Assembly (NCBI GenBank): GCA_963810965.1
Contig: CAWEPT010000016.1
Coordinates: 5,051 to 69,050 of the forward strand
Source: an uncultured delta proteobacterium
GTDB taxonomy: Bacteria; Desulfobacterota; Syntrophia; Syntrophales; UBA2192
Direction of reading: 5' to 3'
Length of the DNA: 64,000 nt
Part shown: positions 5,545-46,652 of the stretch, in pieces
Layout: the number at the start of each line of letters is the position of its first letter
How positions within the stretch are numbered: the stretch's first letter is position 1
Notes under the pieces: model-generated
Seen by the model: only the letters and a program-made list of their open reading frames with translations
Told to the model about the DNA's origin: nothing
The model's database searches: none
Position numbers and translations under genes: made by a program

Positions 5545-5601
5545 AAATAGGAGGCGAAGTAGCGCGAAAGGATGATCATCGAGGCAACCGGGGGAGAAGC
5601 G

Positions 5602-6040
5602 ATGCCGAAGGACGACCGCCTGATCTATCTTGTCTTTACCGCGCAGCAGAAGCTGAGAACCTACCTGAAGAATGTCTTTTCCGAAGCCGGGGTCACCATC
5701 ACGCCGGCCCAGTCGGGGATCCTTTTTCTCCTGAAAAAGAAAAACGGGCAGACCATGTCGGAGCTCAGCCAGGTGCTCACCCTCGACAACTCGACCCTGA
5801 CGGGGCTTGTCGACCGGCTCGAGCGGTCGGGATTCGTGAAGCGCAATGCAGGCACGGCTGATCGGAGGGCCTCGCACGTTTTCATCACGGATAAGGGAGG
5901 CGAGGAGATCGAACGGGCGAGGGCCGTAATCAACCGGGTGAACGAGCAGATCAAGGCGGATTTCACGGAAAGTGAGGTCGAGGCATTCAAGAAAATCCTG
6001 AAATCCTTCTTCGTCAGGTTCGGGGCGAACCCGCGAGGTG
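5602..6040 (+). CDS. MarR family transcriptional regulator (3' end uncertain, no in-frame stop before 6327)
   Basis: GGGGGAGAAG RBS then ATG at 5602. Winged-helix region QTMSELSQVLTLDNSTLTGLVDRLERSGFVKRNAGTADRRASHVFITDKG. The ORF then reads into the next gene, so a missed stop or indel near 6030-6050 is suspected. Confidence 0.7.
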
Positions 6041-6049
6041 AGACAAGTG

Positions 6050-7197
6050 ATGGCGGTTCAACGGGAAAAGAAAGAAAGCCTCTCGCGACTGACGGTGCAG
6101 GCGATACGCTTTGCAGGCCGGGACCTTTCCGTGCGAGGCGATCTCGGGCGTCGGGACCCCCGGGGAGCTCTGGCGGACGATGGCCAGACGGGGCCTTCTG
6201 GGCTGGAGCATCCCTGCAGCGTTCGGGGGAGAAGGCGCAGGATTTTCCGACATCCTTCCGGCCGTGGAGGCCTTCGTCGCGAAAGGCGGCAGACCGGGGC
6301 TCGCCCTTTCCTGGATGGTCCATCTGATCGTCGGAAAGGTCCTCATCGCGGGCGTCGCAAACGGCAAGCAGAAAAAGGAGGTCCTGCCCGGGATGGCCTC
6401 CGGGAAAAGGACCGTCTCCATAGCTCTTTCCGAGCCGGGGGCCGGAAGCGACCCGAAGCGGATTCGCACGACGGCCGTGAAAAAGGGAAGATCCTATGTG
6501 CTCGATGGGGAAAAGGCGTGGCTCACCAATGGTCCCCTGGCCGATCTCTTCATTGTATTTGCCGTGACGGGAGAGCGGGGAGGGAGAAAGGGCTTTACGG
6601 CTTTTCTTGTCCCGAGGGAAACCCCCGGGCTCACCGTTCGTGAAATGCCGGCCCTGGGCTACCTGAGGCCGTCCCCGCACTGCGAGATCCGGCTCGAGGG
6701 GTGCGACCTGCCCGAAACCGCCATCCTGGGCCGAAAGGGGCCGGGCCTGGGAAGAGCTCTCGAAACCGTTCAGGGTGGCTGAGGATGTGCTGCTGTCAGG
6801 GGCCATCCTCGGGGGGCTGGACCGGGAGCTGAGGCAGGCGGCCCGCAGCCTGCGGGAGCGCAGAGGGGAGATCGAAAACGACGTGAAGGAGCGCGTCGGG
6901 GGAATCGCGGCCCTGCTGGAGACGGCGAGGCAGGTTGCGCGGGGCGCCGCAAGGGATCTCGACGGCGGGAAGCAGGGCACGGACGTGGAGCACGGGCTCG
7001 TTGCCTTTCACCTCATCGCGAAAACGCTGCAGGAATCCCTCGGGGGGATCCTCGAAGAGCAAGCAGGCGGCAGGCCCGCCGGTCCGGGTGCGCCGGGGGA
7101 CGATATCGCCCGGCTCATCGGACTCGGGATGCACGCATCACGGGCCCGTCAACGCAAATGGGGAGATACACTTCTGATCGGGAAGGAGAAGTCATGA
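6050..7197 (+). CDS. acyl-CoA dehydrogenase family protein (divergent), two frame changes
   Basis: Pieces 6038.., 6111..6782 and 6775..7197. GLLGWSIPAAFGGEG, SIALSEPGAGSDPKRIRTTAVKKGRSYVLDGEKAWLTNGPLADLFIVFA and GFTAFLVPRETPGLTV match the ACAD N-terminal and middle domains. Shifts lie near 6110 and 6775. Confidence 0.6.
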
Positions 7198-8138
7198 CGG
7201 ATCAAACCGGGAAATTCGAAACGGTCGACAAGGTGAACGAGGGCTTCAAGAGCACCGGCTACATCTGCAGCACGGATATCGCGACAACGGTCTACCTGGC
7301 CTTTCACCTGGAGAAGCCGGTCCTCGTCGAGGGGCCTGCCGGTGTGGGGAAGACGGAGCTGGCGAAGAAGGCGGCCTTGTTCATGGACGTGCCGCTCATC
7401 CGGCTGCAGTGCTACGAGGGGCTCGACGAGTCGAAGGCGCTCTACGAGTGGAAGTACGGCAAGCAGCTCCTCTACTCCCAGCTGCTGCGGGACAAACTCG
7501 ATCAGGTCATCGATAAGGAGAGCGATCTGGGCGAGTCGATCCGGACGCTGCACCGCTACGAGGACATCTTCTTCTCTCCCCAGTTTCTCGAGCCGAGGCC
7601 GCTCCTCAAGGCGCTTCAGGAGGAACGGGGCGCCGTGCTCCTCATCGACGAGGTGGACAAGGCCGACGAGGAGTTCGAAGCCTTTCTGCTGGAGATCCTC
7701 TCCGATTTCCAGGTGTCGATCCCCGAGATCGGCACCGTGACGGCGCGGACGAAGCCCTACGTATTCCTCACCAGCAACAGCACCCGCGAACTCAGCGAGG
7801 CGCTGAAGAGGCGCTGCCTGCACCTCTTCATCCCGTTTCCCGCTCCCGATCTCGAGCGGGAGATCGTCCGCCACCACGTGCCCGATATCCCCGATCTCCT
7901 GGAGAGGCAGCTGGTGATGTTCATCCACGAGGTGAGAAAGCTCGAGCTCAAGAAAGTGCCCTCCATCAGTGAGACCATCGACTGGGCCCGGGCCCTGATC
8001 CTGCTGCACGCCGAGGGACTCGACCGGGACCTGACCCGGAAGACCCTCAATACCTTCCTCAAGTTCGAGGAGGACATCCGGGCCGTCGATGAAAAACTCT
8101 TTCTGCTCGTCGACAAGGCACTGAAGGAAACGGCCTGA
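7194..8138 (+). CDS. MoxR-like AAA+ ATPase (CoxD/NorQ-like)
   Basis: ATGA overlap with the preceding stop. Walker A GPAGVGKTELAKK, Walker B LLIDEVDKA, sensor region LTSNSTRELSEALKRRC. Confidence 0.85.
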   Translation: MTDQTGKFETVDKVNEGFKSTGYICSTDIATTVYLAFHLEKPVLVEGPAGVGKTELAKKAALFMDVPLIRLQCYEGLDESKALYEWKYGKQLLYSQLLRDKLDQVIDKESDLGESIRTLHRYEDIFFSPQFLEPRPLLKALQEERGAVLLIDEVDKADEEFEAFLLEILSDFQVSIPEIGTVTARTKPYVFLTSNSTRELSEALKRRCLHLFIPFPAPDLEREIVRHHVPDIPDLLERQLVMFIHEVRKLELKKVPSISETIDWARALILLHAEGLDRDLTRKTLNTFLKFEEDIRAVDEKLFLLVDKALKETA

Positions 8139-9482
8139 TGGATCGCGTGTTGAACAATTTCATCGTCTCCCTGCGCGGTGCGGGGGTTCCCGTGTCGGTC
8201 TCGGAGAGCATCGACGCCGCGCGAGGCCTGGCGATCTCCGGGTACGGCGAGAGGCAGATCGTCAAGAGCACCCTTGCGGCCACCCTTGCAAAGTCCGCTG
8301 CCGAGAAGGAGATCTTCGACGACTGTTTCGAGCGGTTCTTTTCTTTTCAGTCCCTGCCGTCACCCTTTGCGGACGGCCCGGAGAACGGCAATGAAGAACA
8401 ACCCGGGGACATGCCGCCGATCGGGGGGATGATCATGGAGGGCGACCTGGGCGGGGTTGCACTCGCCGTCCGGGACGCAGCCCGGTCCGTGGATCTGCAG
8501 TCCATCCGTTTTTTCACCCAGCGAGGGATATTCACATCGAGGATTCTCCAGGCGCTGCAACTGGATCAGCTGGACCGTTTCGTGGGCGATCTCTACCGGG
8601 AGGGCGGCGCCGGCGCCTCGGCTGCCGCACGGCAGCTCGAGCAGGGCAGGGATGCGCTCATCGACATGGTGCGGCGCTTTGTCGAGGAGCAGTACGAAAT
8701 CTTTGCCCGGGAGAGCACCGAGCGTGATCATCGAGCGATACCTCTGGGACGTCAGGCTCACGGAGCTGGAAGAGCGGCACTACGACCGCATGCACTTCCT
8801 CATCCGCAAGCTCGTAAAGCGGATGAATGAGCGCTACTCCCGCAGGCGGCGCAGGGCAAAGCGGGGTGCCCTGGATTTCAAACAAACCCTCCGGGCAAAC
8901 ATGCATCACGGGGGCCTTCTCTTCGAGACGCGCTGGAAGAAAAAGCGGATGAACCGGCCGGACGTGGTGATCCTCTGCGATGTGAGCCGATCCATGTCGA
9001 CGGTGGTCCGGTTCTGCCTGCTGATGCTCTACGGCCTCAACGAGGTGGTCGCCCGGGTCCGCTCCTTCGTTTTCTGCTCGAGCCTTCTCGAGGTCAGCCA
9101 TATCTTCGAGACCTGTCCCATCGCCGAGGCCGTCGAGCGGCTGCGGACCGGCGAAGGGCTCGACATCCACATGGGAAGGACCGACTACGGGAGCGCCTTC
9201 TGGGACTTCACGAACCGCCACCTGGAGGCGGTCACGGGCAAGACGACGGTCATCATCCTGGGCGATGCCCGCAGCAACTATGGCGACCCGGCCGATGAGC
9301 TGCTGAAGAAAATCGCCGAGCGCTGCCGCCGCCTCATCTGGCTGAACCCCGAAACGCCCCCCATGTGGGGAACGGGCGATTCGGAGATGAAGCGCTACAT
9401 GCGCCTCTGCGATGTGGTCATGGAGTGCAGCACCCTGCGTCACCTGGAGCAGCTCGTCCGTGTCCTCGTCCGGATCCCCTGA
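8138..9482 (+). CDS. VWA domain protein (CoxE-like partner of MoxR), one frame change near 8720
   Basis: TGATG overlap with moxR. N-terminal part in ORF 8138..8830, C-terminal part in 8457..9482. MIDAS motif VVILCDVSRSMS and IILGDARSNYG. Confidence 0.75.
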
Positions 9483-33559: not shown

Positions 33560-35320
33560 GTGACGGAAAATCAGCTCATCGAAAAGGATCAGGTCGAGAG
33601 GAACACCCGGTGGATCGTCTTTTCGCGGATCGCCGTCGTTTCCTATTTTCTCGGCGTGACGATTTTCATTCAGTTCCGGTCCGTCAGGCAACTGCCGGAG
33701 GAGTTGCTGTGGGCCAGTTATATTCTCATCTCGGCCGTGTACATCTTTTCGGTCGTATGCCTCGTCCTGCCCAAGACGACGCGCTATTTCCGGATGAATA
33801 TCGCCATCCAGTCCGTCTTCGATGTGATCTTCGTGACAGGGATCGTCCTGCTCACGGGCGGGATCGACAGCGTCTATTCGGTCCTCTACTCGCTCGTGAT
33901 CATCTACTCGACCCTGTTCATGGGCCGCAAGGGAGGGCTCTTCATCGCGGCCCTGAGCAGCCTGTGCTACGTGGTGCTCATCAACCTCGACATCTCCGCC
34001 ATCTACGAGTTCCTCTACGACGAGGGGATCGTCCCCAGGGGGGAACTGACCCGGAGCTACATCCTCACACGGGCCATTACCCATGTGGCCTCTTTTTTCC
34101 TCATGGCTCTGCTGACAAGCTTCGTCGTCGAGCAGGAGCGCAAGACCAAGCGCCTGCTGGCGGAAAAGGTTACAGCCTTCGACCGGCTCGATCTGCTGCA
34201 CCGCAGCATCATCGAGTCCGTCGACACGGGCATCCTGACGGTCAACCTCGAGGGGCATATCCGCTCCTTCAACCGTGCCGCCGAGGAGATCTCCGGTTAC
34301 GCCTCCGGAGAGGTCGGCAACCGCAGCATCGAGGAAATCTTTCCGGGGGTCTCGGCCATTATTTCGCCGATAGAGCCTGAAGAGAGGAAGCGCCAAAGGA
34401 AGCGATTCGAGATCGTGATCCGGAAAAAATCCGGGGAGTCCATGATCCTGGGCATCTCCGAATCCCCCCTCTTCGAGCGCGGCGTGAAGATCGGCAGCAT
34501 CCTTATCTTTCAGGATCTGACCTCCTTCAAGGAGATGGAGCGGGAAGGAGAGAAAAACAAGCAATTTGCCTTCATCGGCCAGATGGCGGCGGGGCTCGCC
34601 CACGAACTGCGAACGCCGCTTCAGTCCATCAGCGGCTCCATCCAGATCCTCCGGCGGGACCTGAAACTCGAGCCGACGGACGAGAGGCTCATGCAGGTCA
34701 TTCTCCGGGCGAAGGACCAGATGGAAAGCCTCGTGAGAAATTTCCTCCTCATGGCGCGATCGAACCGGGGCAGGCGGTCGGAGACGGACATCGGCCGGCT
34801 CATCGAGGACGTCATCGAGTCGCTCACCTACGGCGCGGAGTGGAACTCCCGGGTGGAGCTCCGCAAAACCCTCGGGCAGGAGCTGCTGGTGATGGGCGAT
34901 CCCGCCGAGATCCGGCAGATCCTCTGGAATCTGATGATCAACGCCATGCAGTCCATGCCGGAAGGGGGCACGCTCAGCGTCACAGCATGCCCCGACAGGA
35001 TCGACGGGGAGGCGCCGGCCGTGAGGATCGAGATCGGAGATACGGGCTGCGGGATCGACACGGCCGATCTGGAAAAGATCTGGGAGCCCTTCTACACGAC
35101 GAAGGAGCGGGGAAGCGGCCTGGGCCTCGCCATCGTGAGGCGGATCGTCGAGAACCACGGGGGTGCGGTCGCCGTGCGGAGCGACGCCCGGTCGGGCACT
35201 CAATTCTCGATACGGCTCCCCCGGATCGTACCGGATCAGCTTGCCCCGGAGGAAGAGATCGTCCCGGAGGAAAGGAATCTGCCCATGCAGCGTGCGGCGG
35301 CTGGCGGGGCGGCAAACTAA
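33560..35320 (+). CDS. pilS: membrane sensor histidine kinase (PilS-like: multi-TM, PAS, HisKA, HATPase)
   Basis: GTG start. Six N-terminal TM helices. H-box GLAHELRTPLQSISG. N/G boxes NLMINAMQSM and DTGCGI...GSGLGLAIVRRIVENHGG. The symbol is inferred only from the position upstream of pilR-pilA. Confidence 0.7.
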   Translation: MTENQLIEKDQVERNTRWIVFSRIAVVSYFLGVTIFIQFRSVRQLPEELLWASYILISAVYIFSVVCLVLPKTTRYFRMNIAIQSVFDVIFVTGIVLLTGGIDSVYSVLYSLVIIYSTLFMGRKGGLFIAALSSLCYVVLINLDISAIYEFLYDEGIVPRGELTRSYILTRAITHVASFFLMALLTSFVVEQERKTKRLLAEKVTAFDRLDLLHRSIIESVDTGILTVNLEGHIRSFNRAAEEISGYASGEVGNRSIEEIFPGVSAIISPIEPEERKRQRKRFEIVIRKKSGESMILGISESPLFERGVKIGSILIFQDLTSFKEMEREGEKNKQFAFIGQMAAGLAHELRTPLQSISGSIQILRRDLKLEPTDERLMQVILRAKDQMESLVRNFLLMARSNRGRRSETDIGRLIEDVIESLTYGAEWNSRVELRKTLGQELLVMGDPAEIRQILWNLMINAMQSMPEGGTLSVTACPDRIDGEAPAVRIEIGDTGCGIDTADLEKIWEPFYTTKERGSGLGLAIVRRIVENHGGAVAVRSDARSGTQFSIRLPRIVPDQLAPEEEIVPEERNLPMQRAAAGGAAN

Positions 35321-35329
35321 GGAGCGGAT

Positions 35330-36824
35330 ATGGAACGGATCCTCGTTGTCGACGATGACAGGGGCATGCAGGATGTCCTCGATATCATGCTCTCCCGTGC
35401 GGGGTACAAGGTCGCCACGGCCGACGACGGGGCTGCGGCGCTCGACATCATCGGGAAGAAAAAATTCGATCTCGTCATCACGGATCTCAAGATGCCGCGC
35501 GTCGACGGGATCGACCTGCTCAAGGGGATCAAGGAAACGGCGCCGGGTACGGCCGTGATCCTCCTGACGGCCTTTGCATCCGGGGAGACGGCGCTGGCCG
35601 CCATGCGCGAGGGTGCCTACGACTACGTCGAGAAGAACTTCAATGTCGAAGATCTGCTGGCCATCGTCCGGGATGCCCTCGAGAAAAGGGAGGTGGACCG
35701 GAAGGAGAATCCCCTCCCGATACAGCAAGGGGATGACGCCCGGTATTTCGGAACCATGGTGGGCCGCAGCAAGGAGATGCAAAAGGTCTATGCCCTGATC
35801 CGCAAGGTGGCCGACACGCCGGCCAACGCACTCATCCTCGGGGAGAGCGGGACAGGGAAAGAACTGGTGGCCAGGGCCATCCACGACAACAGCGCACGCA
35901 AGGGCAAAGCCCTTTGTGGCCATCAACTGCGGCGGCATCCCGGAGAACCTCCTGGAGAGCGAGCTTTTCGGGTATATGAAGGGCTCCTTCACCGGGGCTT
36001 TTGCGGACCACGCGGGCCTCTTCGAGGTCGCCCGGGGCGGGACGATCTTCCTCGACGAGATCGCCGAGTTGCCCGTCATCCTCCAGGTCAAGCTGCTTCG
36101 CGTCGTACAGGAGAAGGCCGTCCGCAGGATCGGCGGCTCCGAGGACATCAAGGTCGACGTCCGGATCGTCTCGGCGACGAACCAGCACCTCCAGGAGAAG
36201 GTGAAGCAGGGCGAATTCCGCGAGGACCTCTACTTCCGGCTCAACGTGATCCCGATCCACATCCCGCCGCTGAGAAAACGCAGGGAGGATATCCCGCTTC
36301 TGGCGCAGTACTTCATCGAGAAATACGCAAAGGAGTTCGGCAAGGAGGTCAAGAGGATCTCCACGTACGCCCTGGAGCTGCTCATGCGCTACCCGTTTCC
36401 GGGAAACATCCGGGAGCTGGAGAACATCATCGAGCGCAGCGTCGCCCTGGAGAGCTCGAGCATCATCCTGCCCGAGAACCTGATCATCGCGGAAGAGGGC
36501 AACGGCGCGGCCGCCCCGAGCGGGCCCGCGGGGGAGTTCCCGGAGACAGGGGTCGATCTCAACGGGGAACTGGAGCGCTTCGAGCGGGAGATCATCCGCA
36601 AGGCCCTCGAGAAGGCGAAAGGGTCCAAGACGAAGGCGGCCTCGCTTCTCGGGGTGAGTTTCCCCAGCCTCCGGCACCGAATCGAGAAGCTCAACATGGA
36701 GAACGGGGAAGGGGAAGGGAAGAGTGATGAAGATCAGCAGGAGCTGATGAGAATCATCACTTTCTTCCGGTTTCCGAAGGGTTGGAAGCGATGCGCAGGA
36801 AGACGGATGATAATTTGTAAGTAA
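35330..36824 (+). CDS. pilR: sigma54-dependent response regulator (NtrC/PilR type), one frame change near 35907
   Basis: Receiver ILVVDDD...[13 protein letters not shown]+ [53 protein letters not shown]. Removing one base in GCCCTTTG restores [13 protein letters not shown]. Confidence 0.8.
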
Positions 36825-36870: not shown

Positions 36871-36886
36871 TGGCATGCGATTTGCT
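36871..36886 (+). promoter_or_regulatory. sigma54 promoter upstream of the pilin genes
   Basis: TGGCAT-GCGAT-TTGCT, an exact fit to GG-N10-GC, 135 nt before the pilin ATG at 37021. Confidence 0.75.
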
Positions 36887-37020
36887 CAATCAGGGTCAGA
36901 ACGAAAAAATCACGACAAGGGGGGCAAAGAAAAAAAACAGTTCGGTCTAAAAGTTATCGAAGAAGAAGACGATAGTAATCTAGGAAAAATACAGGAAAGA
37001 AAATCGAACAGGAGGTTATC

Positions 37021-37429
37021 ATGATCAGTTATTTCGCGAAAAAGAGAAACAAGAAGGGCTTCACGCTGATCGAACTCATGATCGTCGTGGCCATCATCGC
37101 CATCCTGGCGGCCATCGCCATCCCGCAGTTCACGGCATACAGGCTCAGCGCGGCTTCAGGGCCGAGCTCAAGGCGGACCTGAAGAACGCCTACACGGCGG
37201 CGCAGGCCTACTTCTCCGACTTCCCCACGGCTACTGTCGGCGCCCTAGCCAAGCTGACGGCCTCGGGCTATCAGAAGTCGCCCAACGTCGGCTTCGCGTC
37301 CGGCAACATGACCGTCTACGACGGGCACACATCACGCTGTCTCACGCCTCGCTGCCCAGCGGCAAGACGACCGGCACGGTCACGAGCGGCGGCATCATCA
37401 CCATGCCCGATGATGTGAGAATAGGTTAG
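37021..37429 (+). pseudogene. type IV pilin paralogue, disrupted by two 2-nt insertions relative to the downstream copy
   Basis: [37 protein letters not shown], then a premature stop after 53 codons. The rest of the pilin sequence is readable in the other two frames ([25 protein letters not shown]..., ...[25 protein letters not shown]). Confidence 0.7.
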
Positions 37430-37606
37430 ACCTGATCCTAACGGTAACGATATCAACTGAAAAGGACGGGCGGCAGCAAAGCGATGGTTGACCCTGGTTT
37501 ATGTTAAAGAAGGCAGTTCGGTCTGAGAAAGCGAGACGATCAGGAATCGAAGAGAAGCGCATGGCATAAAACAAATGAAATAATCAAGATTCGACAGGAG
37601 GTTATC

Positions 37607-37999
37607 ATGATCAGCTATTTCACGAAGAAAAGAGGACAGAAGGGCTTCACGTTGATCGAGCTCATGATCGTTGTGGCCATCATCGGCATCCTGGCGGCCA
37701 TCGCCATCCCGCAGTTCACGGAGTACCGCAAGCGCGGCTTCCGGGCCGAGCTCAACGCGGACCTCAAGAACGCCTACACGGCGGCGCAGGCCTACTTCTC
37801 CGACTTCCCCACGGGTACTGTCGGCGCCCTGGCCAAGCTGACGGCCTCGGGCTATCAGAAGTCGCCCAACGTGGGCTTCGCATCCGGCGACATGACCGTT
37901 TCCACGGGCACCATCACGCTCTCGCACGCCTCGCTGCCAAGCGGCAAGACAACCGGCACGGTCACGAGCGGCGGCCTCATCACCATGCCCGCACAGTGA
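37607..37999 (+). CDS. pilA: type IV pilin (class III signal peptide, 117-aa mature protein, no Cys)
   Basis: [54 protein letters not shown]. Confidence 0.9.
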
Positions 38000-38050
38000 G
38001 AAAGGGTTTGATGTAGATACGGGTTAACCATTCAACTCAACCGGACGGGG

Positions 38051-38091
38051 GCAGCGAGTCAATCGCTGCCCCCGGTTTTTTATCGGGAGAG
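38051..38091 (+). terminator. rho-independent terminator after pilA
   Basis: Stem GGGGGCAGCG / CGCTGCCCCC followed by GGTTTTTT. Confidence 0.8.
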
Positions 38092-38240
38092 CATTGATCT
38101 GACGCATCAAGGGCATTTCCCGGTGCCGGAAGCCCAAACGGCAAAGAAATTGCAAGGAATTACCCGGATCCTGAGGCCGGGGCTCGACTCGGCAAATCCG
38201 ACGGGAAGAATCCGCAGAAACTGGTGATGAAATCCAATGG

Positions 38241-40120
38241 TTGTGTCCCGTCTCAGCCTCGGCTGCCACAGACAATACCGTTACAGGGCAATCTCTAACC
38301 GGTTTGGTCCTGGTGGGCATGACGCTTCTGCTGTACTGGCCGGTGCAGCAGTTCGATTTCGTTGCCTTTGACGACACGGCTTACGTGACGGAAAACCGCA
38401 TCGTTCGGGGAGGCCTTACGGTCGGGGGGCTCCGCTGGGCCTTCTCGACCTTCGATGTGGCCAACTGGCACCCCCTCACCTGGCTTTCCCACATGCTCGA
38501 TGTGGAGCTCTACGGGCTCAATGCCGGCGGCCACCACTGGACGAGCGTCGCTGATTCACGCGGCCGGCGCCGCTGCTGCTGTTTGCCGCCCTGCTGGCCA
38601 TGACCGGCGCGATCTGGGCAAGCGCCTTCGCGGCCGCTCTTTTTGCCGTCCACCCCCTGCACGTGGAATCCGTTGCCTGGGTGGCCGAGAGAAAAGACGT
38701 CCTGAGCGGCTTTTTCTGGTTTCTCTGCCTTGGCAGCCTACGCGTCGCTACGTGAAGAAGCCCGCGATCGACACGGTACCTCGCCGTGCTCGTTCAGTTT
38801 CGCCCTGGGGCTGATGTCGAAACCCATGGCGGTCACGCTGCCCTTTGTATTGCTTCTGCTCGATTACTGGCCGCTGAGGCGTTTCGACTGTGCCGTGACG
38901 GCCTTCGACAGATTGTATGGTGCGCCTGACTCGGGAAAGGCTGCGTCCGCCCGGCGCCTGACCGTCGAGAAAATTCCCGCTGATTCGTTCTGTCCGCGGT
39001 CTCCTGTGCGATGACGCTTGTCGCCCAGGCCGGCGGCGGGGCGGTCATCGCCCTGGAACAGATCCCCCTCGAGGCGCGCCTTGCAAATGCCATCGTGTCC
39101 TATGTCGATTACCTGGGGAAGACCTTGTGGCCCGCGGGGCTCGTTATGTTCTACCCCCACTTCGGGGATGCCACCGGCGTGGAAGATTGCGTCCTGCGCT
39201 CTGATTCTTGCGGCCGTAACGGTTTTCGCGGTACGCGGTGCGCGCCGCTATCCCTATGTCCTGGTCGGGTGGCTCTGGTACCTGGGAACGCTCGCTCCTG
39301 TCATCGGGATCGTCCAGGTGGGATCCCAGTCCATGGCGGACCGGTACACCTATATCCCCCTGGCGGGGATTTTCATCGCCCTGGCCTGGGCCCTGCGGGA
39401 TCTGCGCCGGGAAAGGGCACGACTTGAAAAAGGCCCTCATCGTCGTGACGGCTGTTTCGCTCGTCGGGCTCACCGTCGCGGCAAGGGACGCAGGTCTGGA
39501 CCTGGCGTAACAGCGAAACACTTTTCGGAGCACGCGCTCCAGGTGATCGAGGCAAACCCCGTGGTCCACAACAATCTCGGGGTCACCTATCTGAACGCGG
39601 GCGATCACGACAAGGCTCTTGCCACACTTCCGCCGGGCCCTCGAACTGCGGCCCGGTTACGCGGACGCCCTGTTCAACCTCGGCCTCTGCGCATTCAAGG
39701 CGGGGGACCGTCAAGGGGCAACACGGTATTTCCAGGACGGCGTTGCAGGAGGATTCACGATCCGAGAAGGGCCCATGTCTACCTGGGCTTTATCCAGCTT
39801 GAGCAGCGACATGCCCGGGCCTGCGGCAGGACATTTCCAGGAAGCCCTGCGGATCAGCCCGGATCAGGAGGCGGCCCATCACCATCTGGCCGTTGCCCTG
39901 ATGCAGTTAGAGCGACTACGCTGCGGCCGAGCGGCACCTCCGGGAAACGCTGCGGCTCAACCCGCAAAACCCGGAAGCGCTCAATAATCTCGGGGTCACC
40001 CTCATGGCTCAGGGGAAATACGGCGAGGCCGTCGAGGTCTTGAAGACGGCCAATGACCTGGCGCCGGGACGCCCGATTGTGGAAAAGAATCTCAGGAATG
40101 CCCAGGCCGGCAGACTTTAG
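38241..40120 (+). pseudogene. GT-C fold protein O-mannosyltransferase-like membrane domain (PMT_2/DUF1736 type) fused to C-terminal TPR repeats (TMTC-like); about 15 frame changes
   Basis: [125 protein letters not shown]. TPRs include HNNLGVTYLNAGDHDKAL, FRRALELRPGYADALFNLG and NPEALNNLGVTLMAQGKYGEAVEVL. The pieces rotate through all three frames. Confidence 0.65.
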
Positions 40121-40128
40121 GTGGAACC

Positions 40129-41869
40129 ATGGTTGACGACAGCACGGCAAAGCATCGAATGCCACCCGCGCAGGATTTCACCCGAGCCCCGCGGCGGCGC
40201 GGATTCTCTGTCTGGGTGATGATGTCCGTCCTGGCGGGGATTCTCGTCATCGAGGTGCTCCTCTGCCTGATGCCGCCCGTCTCGCGCGATGCGCTCATCC
40301 ACCATCTTGCCATCCCGAAGCTCTGGATCCGCCACGGGGGATTCTTCGAGACGCCCTGGACCGATGTTCAGCTACTTCCCGATGAACGTCGACCTGCTGT
40401 ACCTCGTCCCGCTCCTGTTCGGCAACGATCGGGTGCCTGCGTTCATCCACCTTCTCTTCGGATGGGGGACGGGATATCTCGTTTACCGATATCTGAAGGA
40501 TCAGGCGGGAAAGGTCTGGGGGCTGCTCGGCCTGCTGGTCTTCGTCAGCACCCCGATGGTCATCCGTTTATCCATCACCGCATACGTGGATCTGGGGATG
40601 ATCTTTTTCACGACGGCCAGCGTCCTGTCCTATCTGCGGTGGCGGGACGGCGGCTATGAAGACGTGAAATGGCTCCTTCTTGCGGCCGTCTGCATGGGGC
40701 TGGCCGCAGGCACAAAATACAACGCCCTCATCTCCTGGCTCTTCCTCGGCGGGGCGGTCTGTTTTCTCTATGCAAGGGATACGGGAAAACAGCTGCAGGC
40801 CATCCGATGGGGCTTGATCTTTTTCCTGGTTGCCCTTGCCGTGGTCTCGCCCTGGCTTGTGAAAAACCTCATCCTGAAGGGAAACCCGATCTATCCCCTC
40901 ATGGACAACGTGTTCTCGTTTATTCATGGCGGCCGCGAAACCGCTGCATTCCTTGCGGCGGGCGAGGCGGAGAGAGGGGGGGCTACAGTCTCCTCAGGAA
41001 CAGGACGCTCCTGTACGGGGAAGAGATCTGGCAAATCCTGCTTTTGCCTCTCCGGATCTTTTTCGAGGGCCGGGATCACTCCCCGCAGCATTTCGACGGT
41101 GTCCTGAACCCGCTGTTTGCGCTGGCGATCCCCTTTGCATTCGTCGGGAGCCGAAAGGGCCACCGGTTCTTTTTTTTCCTGTTCATCGTTTTCGTTTTCC
41201 TCGTGTCGATTCTCATGGCGGACGTGCGCATCCGCTATATCCTGCCGATCCTGCCGTTCATGACGATCCTCGCCGTCATGGGGATCCGAAACGGCACCGA
41301 GTGGCTGGCGAGCCGCAGGCAGAGCGCCCTGAGGCTGGCAGGTCGGGCGGTTCCTTTCGCCGTTGCCCTGCTGCATTGCCGCAAACCTCTTCTACCTGGG
41401 AAATCAATTCACGGCCATCCGGCCCCTGCCTTACATTCTCGGCGAGGAGTCGCAGGATGAGTTCCTTCCGGCAAGTCGGCAGCCTTCCCGCAGGTCGGCA
41501 GCTACCCGGCCATGTCTTTATCAATCGAGAGCTGCCGGGCGATGCCGTTGTCTATCTTCTGTATCTGAGCGGGCGGGGATATTACCTGGACCGGGACTAC
41601 ATCCACCATGTCGGCCTGGAGACGGCCATCGTGAAGGCCATGGTGCGATCGTCGACGGATGCGGCGAACGCTTGCGTGCCTTCCTGAGATCCCTGGGGGG
41701 CACCTACATTCTGGTGCGGGAAGAGCTGCTGATGAAGGCGCTCGAGGACAACTTCCCGGAGGAAACCGTCCGGAGCGTTCGGGAAAAGCTTGCAGATTGC
41801 CTCACGAAGGTTTATGAATCGAATGGTCACGCCGTCTACGAGATCCGAGGAACGTTGGTGACAAGTTGA
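40129..41869 (+). pseudogene. GT-C fold glycosyltransferase (family 39 / ArnT-PMT_2-like), about five frame changes
   Basis: VSRDALIHHLAIPKLW, YFPMNVDLLYLVPLLFGNDRVPAFIHLLFGWGTGYLVYRYL, LAAGTKYNALISWLF, LLYGEEIWQILLLPLRIFFEG. Multiple TM segments spread over ORFs 40129.., 40289.., 40669.., 41363.. and 40926... Confidence 0.6.
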
Positions 41870-41944
41870 CAATGCTCAGCTGAGCGACTCTCCCGATAGC
41901 GTTAGTACCTTCGTCACAACGTCCCCGATCAGTCAGAGGAAAGC

Positions 41945-42709
41945 ATGTTTGCAGGGAAAAAAGTCGTCGTCGTCATGCCCGCCTACAATGCGGCGCAGAC
42001 CCTCATGAAGACCTTCGAGGAGGTCATGGCCCAGGGCGTCGTCGACAGGGTGATCATCGTCGATGACGCGAGTCACGACGAGACCGCGGCGCTGGCGCGA
42101 ACCCTTCCGGGCGTGAAAGTCCACCGGCACCCCGAAAACAGGGGCTACGGGGCTAACCAGAAGACCTGCTACCGGATGGCCCTGGAAGAGGGCGCCGATA
42201 TCGTCATCATGGTCCACCCCGATTACCAGTACACGCCCAAGCTCATCCCGGCCATGGCATCGCTCATCGGCAACGGGCTTTACGAGTGTGTCCTGGGCTC
42301 CCGCATCCTGGGGGGCCATGCCCTTCGCGGCGGCATGCCTCTGTGGCGGTACGCAGCCAACCGGTTCCTGACGCTCTTCGAGAATTTCCTTACGGGCGGC
42401 AAGCTCTCCGAGTATCACACGGGCTACCGGGCCTTTTCCAGAAAGGTTTTGGAAGAGCTTCCGCTGGAGGGGAACTCCGACGATTTCATCTTCGACAATC
42501 AAATGCTTCTCCAGGTGCTCTGGTACGACCACCCGATTGCCGAGATCAGCTGTCCCACGCGGTATTACGCCGACTCTTCATCCATCAATTTCCGTCGCAG
42601 CGTCCGCTACGGCCTCGGGTGCCTCGCGACGGCCCTCCTCTTCCGGCTTTCCCGTCTCGGCATGGCAAGGACTTCTCTCTTCCCGGGCAGCCGGGTCACG
42701 ACGCGGTGA
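41945..42709 (+). CDS. GT2 glycosyltransferase, polyprenol-phosphate sugar synthase-like (Dpm1/GtrB type)
   Basis: KVVVVMPAYNAAQTL, VIIVDDASHDETA, ADIVIMVHPDYQYTP, GYRAFSRKVLEEL. Confidence 0.8.
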   Translation: MFAGKKVVVVMPAYNAAQTLMKTFEEVMAQGVVDRVIIVDDASHDETAALARTLPGVKVHRHPENRGYGANQKTCYRMALEEGADIVIMVHPDYQYTPKLIPAMASLIGNGLYECVLGSRILGGHALRGGMPLWRYAANRFLTLFENFLTGGKLSEYHTGYRAFSRKVLEELPLEGNSDDFIFDNQMLLQVLWYDHPIAEISCPTRYYADSSSINFRRSVRYGLGCLATALLFRLSRLGMARTSLFPGSRVTTR

Positions 42710-42723
42710 AGGAGGGATCTCGC

Positions 42724-43507
42724 GTGGCGCAGGGATCGGACAATCGTTTCGATGATTTTTTCGTAGAGCCGGCTTACCTCTCTCTGAAGAACCACCTCTA
42801 CAACTACCAGGTCCGGAAGCGAGCCGTCCGGGAGCGACTCCTGCGGCCAGGGTGAAGGGATGACGCTGGAGGTGGGAAGCGGCATCTCGCCGATCTCGCC
42901 CGCTACAGACCGGACGGTGTTTACGGAGCTTTCCTTTTCGGCGCTGCGGTGCCTGAAGGCAGGGCAGGGCGCAGGCCACTACGTCGTTGCCGATGCAACG
43001 AGGCTGCCTTTCAAAAAAGGGGTTTTTCGCAGTGCCGTCTGTTCCGAGGTCCTCGAGCACATCGAAGATGACCTCGGGGCCGTAGGCCAGATGGCGTCCG
43101 TCCTGGAAGAGGGCGGCCGTCTTATCGTGACCTTCCCGCACCGCAGGGATTTTTTCGCCGTCGATGACCGCTTCGTGGGGCATCACCGCCGCTACGAGCT
43201 GCCGGAGATGATCGGCCTGCTGGAGAAATCGGGCCTGCGGAGCCTGTCCGTCTGCAACGTCCTGGGACCCCTCGAAAAACTCACCATGTGGGCCACGGCA
43301 GCCTTCCTCACGACCTGTTCCTTCACCGGAAGCTCTTCCCCGGCGGCGGGCAGGGGATTTCGCCCCCCGGCAGGGCTCGTAAAAGCCTTTGAGCTGATCA
43401 ATCGCCTCTACGCAGGGCTTGCCCGGATCGATGCTCGCGTTGTGCCGACACGCCTCGCCATGGTCCTGCTGGTTGTGGCTGAAAAGCAGCGGGCGCCCGG
43501 CGGCTGA
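42724..43507 (+). CDS. class I SAM-dependent methyltransferase, one frame change near 42850
   Basis: GAAGGAGGGA RBS then GTG at 42724. Motif I LEVGSGISP. ADATRLPFKKGVFRSAVCSEVLEHIEDD. Confidence 0.65.
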
Positions 43508-44638: not shown

Positions 44639-46652
44639 ATGGATTATTACAAGAAGGAAGAACGGAGGGAGCAGAAAAAGCAAAAAGGGAGGATGGGGCG
44701 CCATCTCACCCTTCTCATCGGGGCCCTGGCGGGAGTCGCCGTCATCGTCGGGGCGGGTCTGCTGATTGCCTTCTACGGGGAGATCTTTTCTCTCAAGGGC
44801 TTGAAGGGGCTCGTCCGGGTCAGCATCCTGGGCAAGACGCCGGAGTTCCATTACCTCATCATCGAGAGAAACGGGACCGACGAGCGCCTCACGGCCAGCG
44901 ACGTCTTCAAGATCACCTACCGCGACGAATTCATCATCAAGCAGGTTTCCACGGATTCCCTCTTCGAAAAGAACATCACCGTCGACGCGGAGGGTCTCGG
45001 CGGGGCAAACGACCTCAAGGTCCTTCTCAAGGCCGTGGAACTCGTGGACAAGGCGATGAGCACTTCCGTGCGAGAGGCCCTGCGCGGCAAGCCCCTTCCG
45101 GATTCCGCCATCAAGATCCGATACGGCGAGCAGGGTATCGGGAGCGTTGCGGTCCGAATCGAACTGACCGCACAGGATTGGCTGCGCTTCGCGAAGATGC
45201 CTGCGAATGCGAAATGGCAGGCGCAGGCCCTCGAAAAGGCCCTCAGCATAAACCCCGATGACACGGCCCTGCGGAAAACGCTGGCCGAGCAGTACCTCGA
45301 GTCCGGGAAGCTCGATCAGGCCATCGCCCAGTACCGGGCGGTCCTTTCCCGGAAGCCCGATGACATGACGGCTCTTGCCGGGCTTTCCCGCTGCTATGTC
45401 GAGAAGAAGGATTACAACAGGGCCCTGCCGCTCACGAAGCGCCTCACCGAGCTCAACCCGAAGGATGCGGGCGCCCATGCCATCGCCGGGTTCCTGTACG
45501 GCAAGATGGGCAAGTGGAATGAAGCCGTCACCCACTATCAGACGTCGCTGAGGCTCAAGCCCGACGAGGCCATGGTCCATTTCAGTCTGGGCGGGGCCTA
45601 CGAGAAGACGGGAAAGCTTGCACCGGCCATCAAGGAGTATGAAGAGGCACATAGGCGGATGCCCAACGACCAGCGGATCGCCCAGGCGTTGGCAGACGCC
45701 TACAGCAAGGCCGGCAAGCAGCAGGAAGCCGCGCGTCTCTATTCGATGCTTTTGAAGAAAAATCCAAAGGACCCGAACGCCTACGCCAGCATCGCCCAGG
45801 CCCACGGCAAGAAGGGGCAGGTGAAAGAGGAGATCGAGAATTACAAAAAGGCCCTGGTGCTTCAGCCGAAAGACCCCATCCTCCACTACAACCTGGGGGT
45901 GGCCTACGACAAGGCGAAGCGTCACAAGGAAGCCCTTGCCGAGTACGAGAAAACACTGCAGCTCAAGCCCGACGACACGGATGCGGCGGCGAGAGTCGCG
46001 GAATATTATTTCCGCGAGAAGCGTTACAAGGAGGCTGTCGTTGCCCTCAACCGGATCAAAAAGGCGGCCCCGAAGAACCCCCGGGTTTACGCAGACCTGG
46101 GTGTTGCCTACGGGGAACTGAAGCAATATCCCGAGGCGGAGGAGAACTACAAGAAGGCCCTCCAGATGGGCCTCAATGACCCCAACATCCAAGTCAACCT
46201 TGCCGCCATCTATGAGAAACAGGGCCGCTCGAAGGAAGCGGCGAAGGCCGTCGAGAAGGGGGGGAAATCGGGAAAGGCCTCAGACGGAGGCCCTGGAGCG
46301 AATGGGCGCTCAGCAGATGAAGGCGAAAAACTACGACGGGGCTCTCAAGACGTACCGACAGCTGGCCGCCGCCGACCCCAAGCGGGGGATGGCCTATGCC
46401 AACATGGGCTACATCCACAGCCTCAAGGGGCAGACGGACAAGGCCATCGAGAACTTCAAGCTGGCCGTCCGGTATGACAAGGAGGATGAGGGCGCCTGGC
46501 TGGGACTGGGCGAGGCCTACGAGAAAAAAAAGATGTACAGGGAGGCCATCGAAGCGTATAAGGCCGCCTATCAGATCAACCCCGAGTCGAAGGCCGCGGA
46601 GAAGATCCCGCAGCTGAGGATCAGGATGCTCGAGGACAAGCACAGGGACTAG
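44639..46652 (+). CDS. membrane-anchored TPR repeat protein, one frame change near 46260
   Basis: N-terminal TM LTLLIGALAGVAVIVGAGLLIAF, a ~170-aa unassigned domain, then more than 10 TPRs (e.g. AHAIAGFLYGKMGKWNEAVTHYQTSLRLKPDEA). The tail lies in ORF 46176..46652. Confidence 0.7.

Follow-up and report, generated by a model that had tools for sequence, protein, structure and literature searches.

The stretch of DNA analysed here, which we call the window, comprises 64,000 nucleotides from an uncultured delta proteobacterium (Syntrophales, UBA2192; contig CAWEPT010000016.1), and all coordinates below refer to it as a whole. It contains a locus in which two type IV pilin genes are followed by genes for two GT-C membrane glycosyltransferases (GT-C1 and GT-C2), a GT2-type glycosyltransferase (GT2) and a methyltransferase (MT). 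An earlier reading of the letters of this DNA alone (the sequence-only reading) had proposed that these genes form a pilin O-glycosylation module. On the plus strand the order is pilS, pilR, a sigma54 promoter, pilin1, pilin2, a terminator, GT-C1, GT-C2, GT2 and MT; beyond the 3' end of MT come xerD, a gene for a 670-residue tetratricopeptide repeat (TPR) protein (TPR670) and then kdsA. The features of the locus are as follows:

33560-35320, plus strand: pilS-type sensor kinase gene, 586 amino acids, intact (Pfam 6TM_PilS, PAS, HisKA and HATPase_c)
35330-36824, plus strand: gene for a pilR-type sigma54 enhancer-binding response regulator, with one +1 insertion near 35906
36871-36886, plus strand: sigma54 (-24/-12) promoter TGGCATgcgatTTGCT, 5' of the pilin genes
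37021-~37426 (3' end approximate), plus strand: pilin1, type IVa pilin gene broken by three insertions, near 37144, 37317 and 37330
37607-37999, plus strand: pilin2, type IVa major pilin gene, 130 amino acids, intact (Pfam N_methyl, NCBIfam prepilin domain)
about 38046-38074, plus strand: strong intrinsic terminator from a terminator scan, with a 12-base-pair stem (10 GC pairs) and then a T-run, between pilin2 and GT-C1
38237-40120, plus strand: GT-C1, GT-C membrane domain with C-terminal TPR repeats, 17 insertional frameshifts in this assembly
40129-41869, start uncertain (40129-40194), plus strand: GT-C2, second GT-C gene, with a non-TPR C-terminal domain, 7 frameshifts in this assembly
41945-42709, plus strand: GT2, 254-residue GT-A enzyme, candidate polyprenyl-phosphate sugar synthase, intact (Glycos_transf_2 at 3e-26)
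42724-43507, plus strand: MT, S-adenosylmethionine-dependent methyltransferase of about 259 amino acids (Methyltransf_11), one +1 insertion near 42847

For comparison we used related loci, among them metagenome or metagenome-assembled genome (MAG) contigs (L001-L003, L087, L089 and L095) and two GTDB genome representatives, L004 and L005, the latter being Syntrophaceae bacterium UBA5744, the closest named relative. The pilS product is 89-93% identical to its orthologues in L001 and L005, and a frameshift-aware alignment of pilR with the intact PilR of L003, which has Response_reg, Sigma54_activat and HTH_8 domains, gives 89.7% identity with one frameshift and no stops; this alignment and the Pfam matches of pilS uphold the PilS/PilR-type pair of the sequence-only reading. 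The exact sigma54 promoter that it reported stands as well. TGGCATgcgatTTGCT is the sole zero-mismatch match to TGGCAY-N5-TTGCW in the 64-kb window, and the promoter is kept 5' of the first pilin gene in L001, L002, L003 and L005 and is also found before the pilin gene of a Smithella locus, L074. With a PilS kinase, an NtrC-type PilR, a -24/-12 promoter and a pilin bearing a class III signal peptide, the locus has every mark of a PilSR/sigma54 type IVa pilin locus. At the spot occupied by the terminator, a hairpin with a T-run is found in L001, L002, L003, L005 and L038, the sequences differing among loci; a rho-independent terminator 3' of the pilin gene is a recognised trait of pilin-accessory cassettes (PMC11841053). 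Standing after the last pilin gene, such a terminator would attenuate read-through into the downstream genes.

The C-terminal half of pilin2 is rich in Ser and Thr, with 15 among the last 40 residues, as the sequence-only reading had counted, and the protein is 95-97% identical to pilins of L001, L002, L003 and L089. Aligned with pilin2, pilin1 shows 91% identity and three frameshifts, every one of them an insertion. Pilin1 has the look of a mosaic: over its first ~65 codons it agrees with the N-terminus (MISYFAKKRNKKGF...AYRL) of the pilins assigned below to group B, and the remainder belongs to group A. This N-terminus equals that of the L005 pilin, the high homology to L095 stops at 37214, and a 2-base insertion lies at the junction of the two parts (~37144). 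Such a mosaic may have arisen by true recombination, or else the consensus may have merged sequences from two strains.

Joint exchange of the pilin and GT-C1 genes

The sequence-only reading had proposed to look for linkage of pilin and transferase genes in relatives. We find the order comEC, pilS, pilR, one to three pilin genes, GT-C1, GT-C2, GT2, MT and xerD in eight loci (L001-L005, L087, L089 and L095), so that the linkage is conserved. Conservation among close relatives is by itself weak evidence, and the decisive result is one of co-variation: pilin type and GT-C1 allele switch together in nine of nine related loci, whatever the genomic background. Expressed as percent amino-acid identity to the window, the two groups, of four and five loci, compare as follows:

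Group A (L001, L003, L089, L002): pilin at least 95; GT-C1 membrane domain 71-87; GT-C1 TPR domain 73-83 (56 in L001, where the gene is broken)
Group B (L092, L095, L087, L005, L094): pilin 57-62; GT-C1 membrane domain 53-60; GT-C1 TPR domain 29-41

Two loci separate the allele from its background. The background of L095 is very near that of the window (97% identity for PilR and XerD, 96% for GT2, 94% for MT and 90% for GT-C2), and despite this it carries another pilin (59%) and another GT-C1 (60% in the membrane domain, 38% in the TPR domain). L002 is more distant (89% for XerD, 78% for GT2), yet has the same pilin (95%) and the same type of GT-C1 (71% and 73%). At the nucleotide level, the window and L095 are 93% identical up to position 37214, which lies inside pilin1 just past the conserved N-terminal helix; the identity then drops to 67% or none over a stretch that takes in the variable part of the pilin gene, the terminator and the whole of GT-C1, and is back to 90-96% from position 40195, at the start of GT-C2. 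From the boundaries at 37214 and 40195 we therefore conclude that the variable region of the pilin and GT-C1 have been exchanged as one block. GT-C2, GT2 and MT form a shared core that is conserved whatever the pilin type. Thus the proposed module is borne out in its linkage and, across nine loci, in the co-variation of GT-C1, while only GT-C1 of its four enzymes is tied to the pilin allele.

Homologous pilins also occur beside GT-C1 genes in other gene orders. In L038, a GT-C2-like gene is followed by a homologous Ser/Thr-rich pilin gene, two GT-C1 genes and GT2, and in L074 (Smithella) the order is GT-C2, a homologous pilin gene on the other strand and two GT-C1 genes; GT-C2-like genes are thus near a pilin gene in both. 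In L069 (Hydrogenedentota), a non-homologous prepilin-like gene stands between two GT-C1 genes. Downstream of metagenome PilR homologues at 44-67% identity, we found neither pilin nor GT-C genes.

Between the window and L001, synonymous divergence is about 0.42 in GT-C1 and GT-C2, 0.11 in pilR and 0.19 in GT2. A deeper coalescence of the transferase genes than of their flanks is as expected under diversifying or balancing selection or frequent exchange. In L002, a third GT-C gene (PMT_2, 557 amino acids; 6444-8117 on the minus strand) takes the place of MT.

Nature of the frame changes

The sequence-only reading had cautioned that both GT-C genes carry many frame changes, and these are present in this assembly: we count 17 frameshifts in GT-C1, 7 in GT-C2, 3 in pilin1 and 1 each in pilR, MT and TPR670, and pilS, pilin2 and GT2 have continuous frames with none. 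Because the frames are broken, Pfam searches with raw open reading frame fragments yielded little, and an ordinary tblastn search of the window with homologues told us little, since the alignments ran through wrong frames. We rebuilt the broken genes with our own frameshift-aware protein-to-DNA aligner, guided by close homologues.

One explanation of the breaks is real gene decay: GT-C1, GT-C2 and pilin1 would be pseudogenes, and the locus would have ceased to glycosylate. Their density fits this: GT-C1, GT-C2 and pilin1 have about 4-9 frame changes per kb, and the nine neighbouring genes that we checked (about 11 kb) have just three frameshifts, about 0.3 per kb. Decay leaves the character of the changes unexplained, however. 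Set against L001 and L003, the window shows one deletion of its own and 30 insertions found in neither of them, 24 of a single base and 4 of two bases; about 1,170 corrected codons contain no in-frame stop. In the corrected frame, the ratio of non-synonymous to synonymous substitution rates (dN/dS) is 0.167 for GT-C1 and 0.188 for GT-C2, equal in effect to that of pairs of intact orthologues (0.185 and 0.209), and synonymous and non-synonymous substitutions number 52:19 on the branch to the window and 55:23 on the sister branch to L001. The orthologues on L003, a JGI contig, are intact, and the related contig L001 carries frame breaks of its own at other places. Insertions also affect pilR, MT and TPR670, and a distant acyl-CoA dehydrogenase gene is apparently split between frames. 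Finally, the frame errors are densest in the strain-variable block, the very part in which a consensus drawn from several strains would suffer most. On the strength of the insertion-dominated pattern, the lack of stops and the normal dN/dS, we reject true pseudogenisation, which we regard as very improbable.

The insertion-only-like pattern, the absence of stops, the normal dN/dS and the intact orthologues of L003 lead us to read the frame changes as artefacts: most likely they are errors of the assembly and not decay of the genes. The transferase genes are accordingly predicted to be functional in the organism, and probably so, and the case that the sequence-only reading had allowed for, of real frame changes and dead enzymes, does not apply. 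The 'contig_NNNN' naming of L001 is common to MFD genome bins among the relatives; the naming suggests long-read metagenome assemblies. The insertions are not obviously at homopolymers, and several follow a C in a 'tc[G]' context. For annotators, the lesson is one of caution: apparent pseudogenes in a strain-variable block of a seemingly long-read metagenome assembly are most likely consensus errors.

A second patch of broken frames lies at 5572-9482. There the N and M domains of an acyl-CoA dehydrogenase are in one frame (6111-6782) that does not include the C-terminal domain, and overlapping stop-free stretches run in other frames, beside genes for MarR, AAA (CoxD-like) and VWA CoxE proteins. 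The second patch suggests a patchy distribution of such insertional errors over the window as a whole.

Domains and motifs of the encoded enzymes

All four genes that the sequence-only reading had placed directly 3' of the pilin genes, on the same strand, are confirmed at 38237-43507, and of the hidden Markov model profiles that it named, PMT_2, TPR, Glycos_transf_2 and Methyltransf_11 matched in genes of this locus, PMT_2 being below threshold in GT-C1. GT-C1 starts 238 nucleotides past the stop codon of pilin2. The corrected protein has 621 residues, is 86.5% identical to its best database match (P0001) and has no in-frame stops; TPR_1 and TPR_2 match its C-terminal third (residues ~437-607) with E-values of 1e-34 to 1e-35. 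Its membrane domain scores below the cut-off for PMT_2 (22.8 vs 26.1 bits), and seven of ten members of the GT-C1 family match PMT_2, the best at 8e-9. The label of a DUF1736-type domain, given in the sequence-only reading, could not be sustained, for DUF1736 (PF08409) found no match in the corrected GT-C1, in P0003 or in any of ten membrane domains scanned at E<=10.

The motifs DD, ERKD, SKPMxVT, ADRYTY and Y-x6-P-x7-P are kept in both allele groups of GT-C1. F-x3-(F/Y)DD is invariant after the first helix, in a loop that presumably faces the periplasm. Residues matching the catalytic and donor-binding motifs of GT-C enzymes (DD in loop 1, RxD, K..T and (D/E)RxxY), whose meanings we take from the literature (PMC7801869), are invariant across the allele groups and the wider family. 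An AlphaFold model of full-length GT-C1 has a predicted local distance difference test score (pLDDT) of 82, with ~90 or more in the TPR helices. With full-length queries, TPR proteins dominated both the Foldseek search and the profile search of PDB sequences; when the query was limited to the membrane domain (model pLDDT 67), the top Foldseek matches are STT3, DPY19, Pmt4, ArnT and PglB, all of them GT-C enzymes, at E-values of 0.1-0.8, and a profile search of PDB sequences gave no match. A Kyte-Doolittle scan found just eight strongly hydrophobic segments, for which reason a count of 11 transmembrane (TM) helices and a periplasmic placement of the TPR domain stay inferred.

GT-C2 aligns with the intact 552-residue orthologue of L003 at 81% identity without stops. 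The corrected protein exceeds the cut-offs of both PMT (38.5 bits, cut-off 22.7) and PMT_2 (33.8 bits, cut-off 26.1), the L003 orthologue matches the same families, and a Pfam scan found no MIR or PMT_4TMC domain. Against solved structures, it has no sequence match to PMT, ArnT or any GT-C enzyme at E<=1. A 17-nucleotide insertion unique to the window lies at 41468-41484 in GT-C2; it reads CCGGCAAGTCGGCAGCC and is an imperfect direct repeat of the following CAGGTCGGCAGCT... This could be a stutter of the assembly or a real small duplication.

For GT2, the sequence-only reading had suggested a Dpm1/GtrB-like enzyme, which agrees with the Glycos_transf_2 match and with the nearest solved structures, those of DPMS (5mlz, 3e-9) and ArnC (3e-5). 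Matches to the NCBIfam families PpgS, AglJ and Dol-P-hexose transferase are far below cut-off. The motif VDDAS is kept, but at residues ~90-95 GT2 has 'HPD' where DPMS, ArnC and GtrB read 'DAD', and 'HPD' is found likewise in the 70%-identical orthologue of L038. This shared HPD points to a separate subfamily that is highly conserved and counts no fewer than 8,000 homologues at E<=1e-20. No segment of GT2 passes the Kyte-Doolittle scan as a TM segment, and the beginning of ArnC TM1 is matched by no more than a short C-terminal helix; in this GT2 resembles DPM1 and Ppm1, catalytic subunits without TM segments. The MT protein is 95% identical to the intact orthologue of L001, and its Methyltransf_11 match bears out the predicted methyltransferase.

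A candidate pilin glycosylation cassette

The closest parallel known to us from the literature is TfpW (AAM52060.1), the GT-C enzyme that arabinosylates the pilin in group IV strains (Pa5196/PA7) of Pseudomonas aeruginosa; it has 646 residues, 11 predicted TM helices, an essential DDx motif in periplasmic loop 1, the proline-rich motif YX6PFX7P in periplasmic loop 4 and a periplasmic C-terminal TPR domain (bioRxiv 10.1101/2020.04.19.049825). Its gene lies directly 3' of pilA, and the enzyme adds D-arabinofuranose to several Ser/Thr residues of the pilin from the donor decaprenyl-phosphate-D-arabinofuranose, which is made by homologues of DprE1, DprE2 and a phosphoribosyltransferase encoded elsewhere (bioRxiv 10.1101/2020.04.19.049825). 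The same source confirms the position immediately 3' of pilA that the sequence-only reading had given for TfpW, and it answers that reading's remark that it knew of no characterised TPR-fused PMT-like enzyme acting on a bacterial pilin: TfpW, with its GT-C domain, DDx motif and TPR domain, is one. In published architecture, GT-C1 is like TfpW in lying 3' of the major pilin gene after a terminator, in its length of ~600-650 residues and many TM helices, in the DD motif of its first loop, in its C-terminal TPR domain and in being specific to a pilin allele group. The acceptor, multiple pilin Ser/Thr residues in the case of TfpW, is presumably of the same kind for GT-C1. The Y-x6-P-x7-P motif of GT-C1 (YLGKTLWPAGLVMFYP), found in all alleles, is similar to YX6PFX7P but differs from it by a spacing off by one residue and by the lack of Phe after the first Pro. 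Unlike tfpW, GT-C1 is accompanied in cis by GT2, a second GT-C gene and MT, follows two to three tandem pilin genes, has no TfpX and occurs in an anaerobic Syntrophales-like host. The presence of GT2, GT-C2 and MT in cis suggests a donor of polyprenyl-phosphate-hexose type rather than the decaprenyl-phosphate-D-arabinofuranose of TfpW, and homologue domains of DprE1, DprE2 and DPPR synthase are found in none of the called genes of the orthologous loci, the loci alone having been searched.

A second parallel is that with the eukaryotic O-mannosyltransferases TMTC1-4, which share with GT-C1 an N-terminal GT-C membrane domain of the PMT_2/GT-C clan and C-terminal TPR repeats. Several members of the GT-C1 family are named 'protein O-mannosyl-transferase' by JGI. 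The conserved TMTC motifs are M1 DD, M2 SHKSYRP, M3 RxD, M4 KE(T/Q)xxT and M7 ERxxY (PMC7801869); matching by eye on order and spacing, we found M1 (DD), M3 (ERKD) and M7 (DRYTY) present and invariant in GT-C1, M4 partial (SKPMxVT) and M2 not recognisable. Unlike the TMTCs, none of the GT-C1 family members scanned matches DUF1736, which would be expected between TM7 and TM8, and the proposed acceptor is a pilin and not a cadherin domain. Thus the TMTC likeness drawn in the sequence-only reading is retained as regards the GT-C/TPR architecture, the PMT_2 matches and part of the motifs, and is not retained as regards DUF1736.

The encoding of a DPMS/ArnC-related GT2 together with GT-C enzymes recalls DPMS/Ppm1-PMT, ArnC-ArnT, GtrB-GtrC and CsbB-YfhO, systems with a two-step logic in which a polyprenyl-phosphate-linked monosaccharide is made inside and transferred outside (PMC5836110). 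Unlike these systems, the present locus has a GT2 without TM anchor and with HPD for DAD, no gene for a GtrA-type flippase and two different GT-C enzymes, of which GT-C2 is without MIR domains and shows no match in sequence to the solved structures of PMT or ArnT. TfpO/PilO and PglL also O-glycosylate pilins, and tfpO, like GT-C1, lies 3' of pilA in an allele-specific cassette; these enzymes differ in belonging to the Wzy_C/O-antigen-ligase-like family and in transferring preassembled undecaprenyl-diphosphate-linked glycans, and a Pfam scan found no Wzy_C/O-antigen-ligase-like domain here. We found no report in the literature of TfpW-like or TMTC-like enzymes beside pilins in Deltaproteobacteria or Syntrophales.

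From these observations, we hypothesize that the locus is a pilin-accessory cassette like those of Pseudomonas, one that would O-glycosylate the type IV pilin in the periplasm, and that GT-C1 is, by analogy with TfpW, probably a pilin-glycosylating enzyme. We regard this reading as well supported and favour it with moderate confidence. On the cytoplasmic side of the membrane, GT2 would transfer the sugar of a nucleotide sugar to polyprenyl phosphate, MT may modify the lipid-linked sugar, and some flippase would carry it to the periplasmic face. GT-C1 would there recognise its cognate pilin by its TPR domain and loops and move the sugar to Ser/Thr residues of the C-terminal domain of the pilin before assembly, and GT-C2 could extend the glycan or modify further sites. 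The glycan would change the pilus surface, for instance against pilus-specific phages, as suggested by analogy with TfpO and TfpW of P. aeruginosa; such a change would explain the allelic diversity.

Several of our observations weigh against this hypothesis. GT-C2, GT2 and MT do not co-vary with the pilin, and their link to it is indirect because this conserved core is also found beside GT-C1 paralogues with no pilin nearby; gene content varies too, L005 being without GT2 and L094 without GT-C2. A strong terminator stands between the pilin and the transferase genes, and the lipopolysaccharide (LPS) genes kdsA, kdsC and lptCAB are among the downstream neighbours. The fold match of the GT-C1 membrane domain is weak, and 76 of 80 GTDB loci of the GT-C1 family have no pilin nearby. 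GT2 has the divergent HPD motif and shows no TM segment in the scan, and the locus contains no gene for a GtrA-like or other flippase. Ser/Thr richness is common in the C-terminal domains of pilins.

The same evidence can be read in terms of a general module for envelope glycosylation, acting on proteins, LPS or another glycan, with the pilin as one substrate or a mere neighbour. The GT-C1 family is huge and mostly not linked to pilins, with tandem arrays of up to seven paralogues; GT2 or the GT2-MT pair occurs with GT-C1 and GT-C2 paralogues where no pilin is near (L011, L017, L066, L082, L084 and L085); GT-C2, GT2 and MT are kept regardless of pilin type; and both the terminator and the downstream kdsA, kdsC and lptCAB would suit such a module. 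What it leaves unexplained is why near-identical genomes differ by a sharp-edged block in which GT-C1 and the variable region of the pilin are replaced together, and why homologous pilins lie beside GT-C1 in other gene orders. In addition, xerD and the TPR670 gene stand between the module and the LPS genes, and GT-C2 matches neither ArnT nor any other solved GT-C enzyme in sequence at E<=1. We therefore hold a general envelope module to be unlikely, if worth keeping in mind. Still less credence is due to the idea that GT-C1 is specific for the pilin without being an enzyme, as a TPR chaperone or assembly factor like the accessory proteins of TfpY type: the allele coupling does show a specific partnership and not a chemistry, non-enzymatic accessory proteins are included in P. 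aeruginosa cassettes (PMC11841053) and the L005 locus is without GT2, but the invariance of the GT-C catalytic and donor-binding residues and the recurrence of a conserved GT2 partner beside family members argue for catalysis. ArnT/ArnC-like modification of lipid A, which the presence of kdsA and the lpt genes brought to mind, was considered and rejected as the principal explanation, given that GT-C1 is exchanged with the pilin and that xerD and the TPR670 gene intervene.

Pilin glycosylation by allele-specific enzymes is well studied only in a few pathogens, of Pseudomonas, Neisseria and Acinetobacter, in which it alters the chemistry of the pilus surface and protects against pilus-specific phages. 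If the glycosylation cassette that we favour is correct, our observations suggest the same cassette logic in uncultured anaerobic Syntrophales-like bacteria, with an enzyme whose bacterial family is very large, uncharacterised and similar to the TMTC O-mannosyltransferases of eukaryotes. Since the pilin and GT-C1 are swapped together, they provide a defined candidate substrate and natural specificity variants for the GT-C1 family.

When sequences are clustered at 50% identity, that family, defined by the membrane domain of GT-C1, has 98,919 clusters at E<=1e-3 and 27,124 at E<=1e-30. Of the 80 GTDB loci, only 4 have genes with a pilin motif, at a distance from GT-C1 of about 700 bp or less in L005, L038 and L069; because most members have no nearby pilin, the family as a whole is not pilin-specific. 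GT2 orthologues (70-97% identity) accompany GT-C1-family genes in many loci, sometimes with MT: they adjoin genes of the GT-C1 or GT-C2 family in L003, L004, L011, L017, L038, L057, L066, L082 and L085, lie 3-5 kb from GT-C genes in L027 and L084, and recur as a GT2-MT pair in L066 and L084. The partnership of GT2 with GT-C enzymes is therefore general, and pilin specificity would belong to the present subclade of GT-C1. We offer, as a tentative and rather speculative extension, that enzymes of the GT-C and TPR architecture might be protein O-glycosyltransferases each dedicated to a substrate, with the TPR domain picking one target and a lipid-linked sugar made by GT2 being shared. If this were true, the allele pairs of pilin and GT-C1 would be the first natural 'matched pairs' to expose the code of specificity, and the bacterial enzymes would be linked mechanistically to the eukaryotic TMTCs and to TfpW.

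Tandem arrays of GT-C1-family genes with no pilin nearby are found in L025 (1365-17111, with up to seven genes), L036, L037, L043, L051 and L067, in genomes of Planctomycetota, Verrucomicrobiota and Smithellaceae. The TPR670 gene (44639-46652), which encodes an N-terminal membrane segment followed by many TPR repeats, is not a GT-C gene; it lies between xerD and kdsA in all relatives, shares 96% identity with its L001 orthologue and has its one +1 insertion near 46280.

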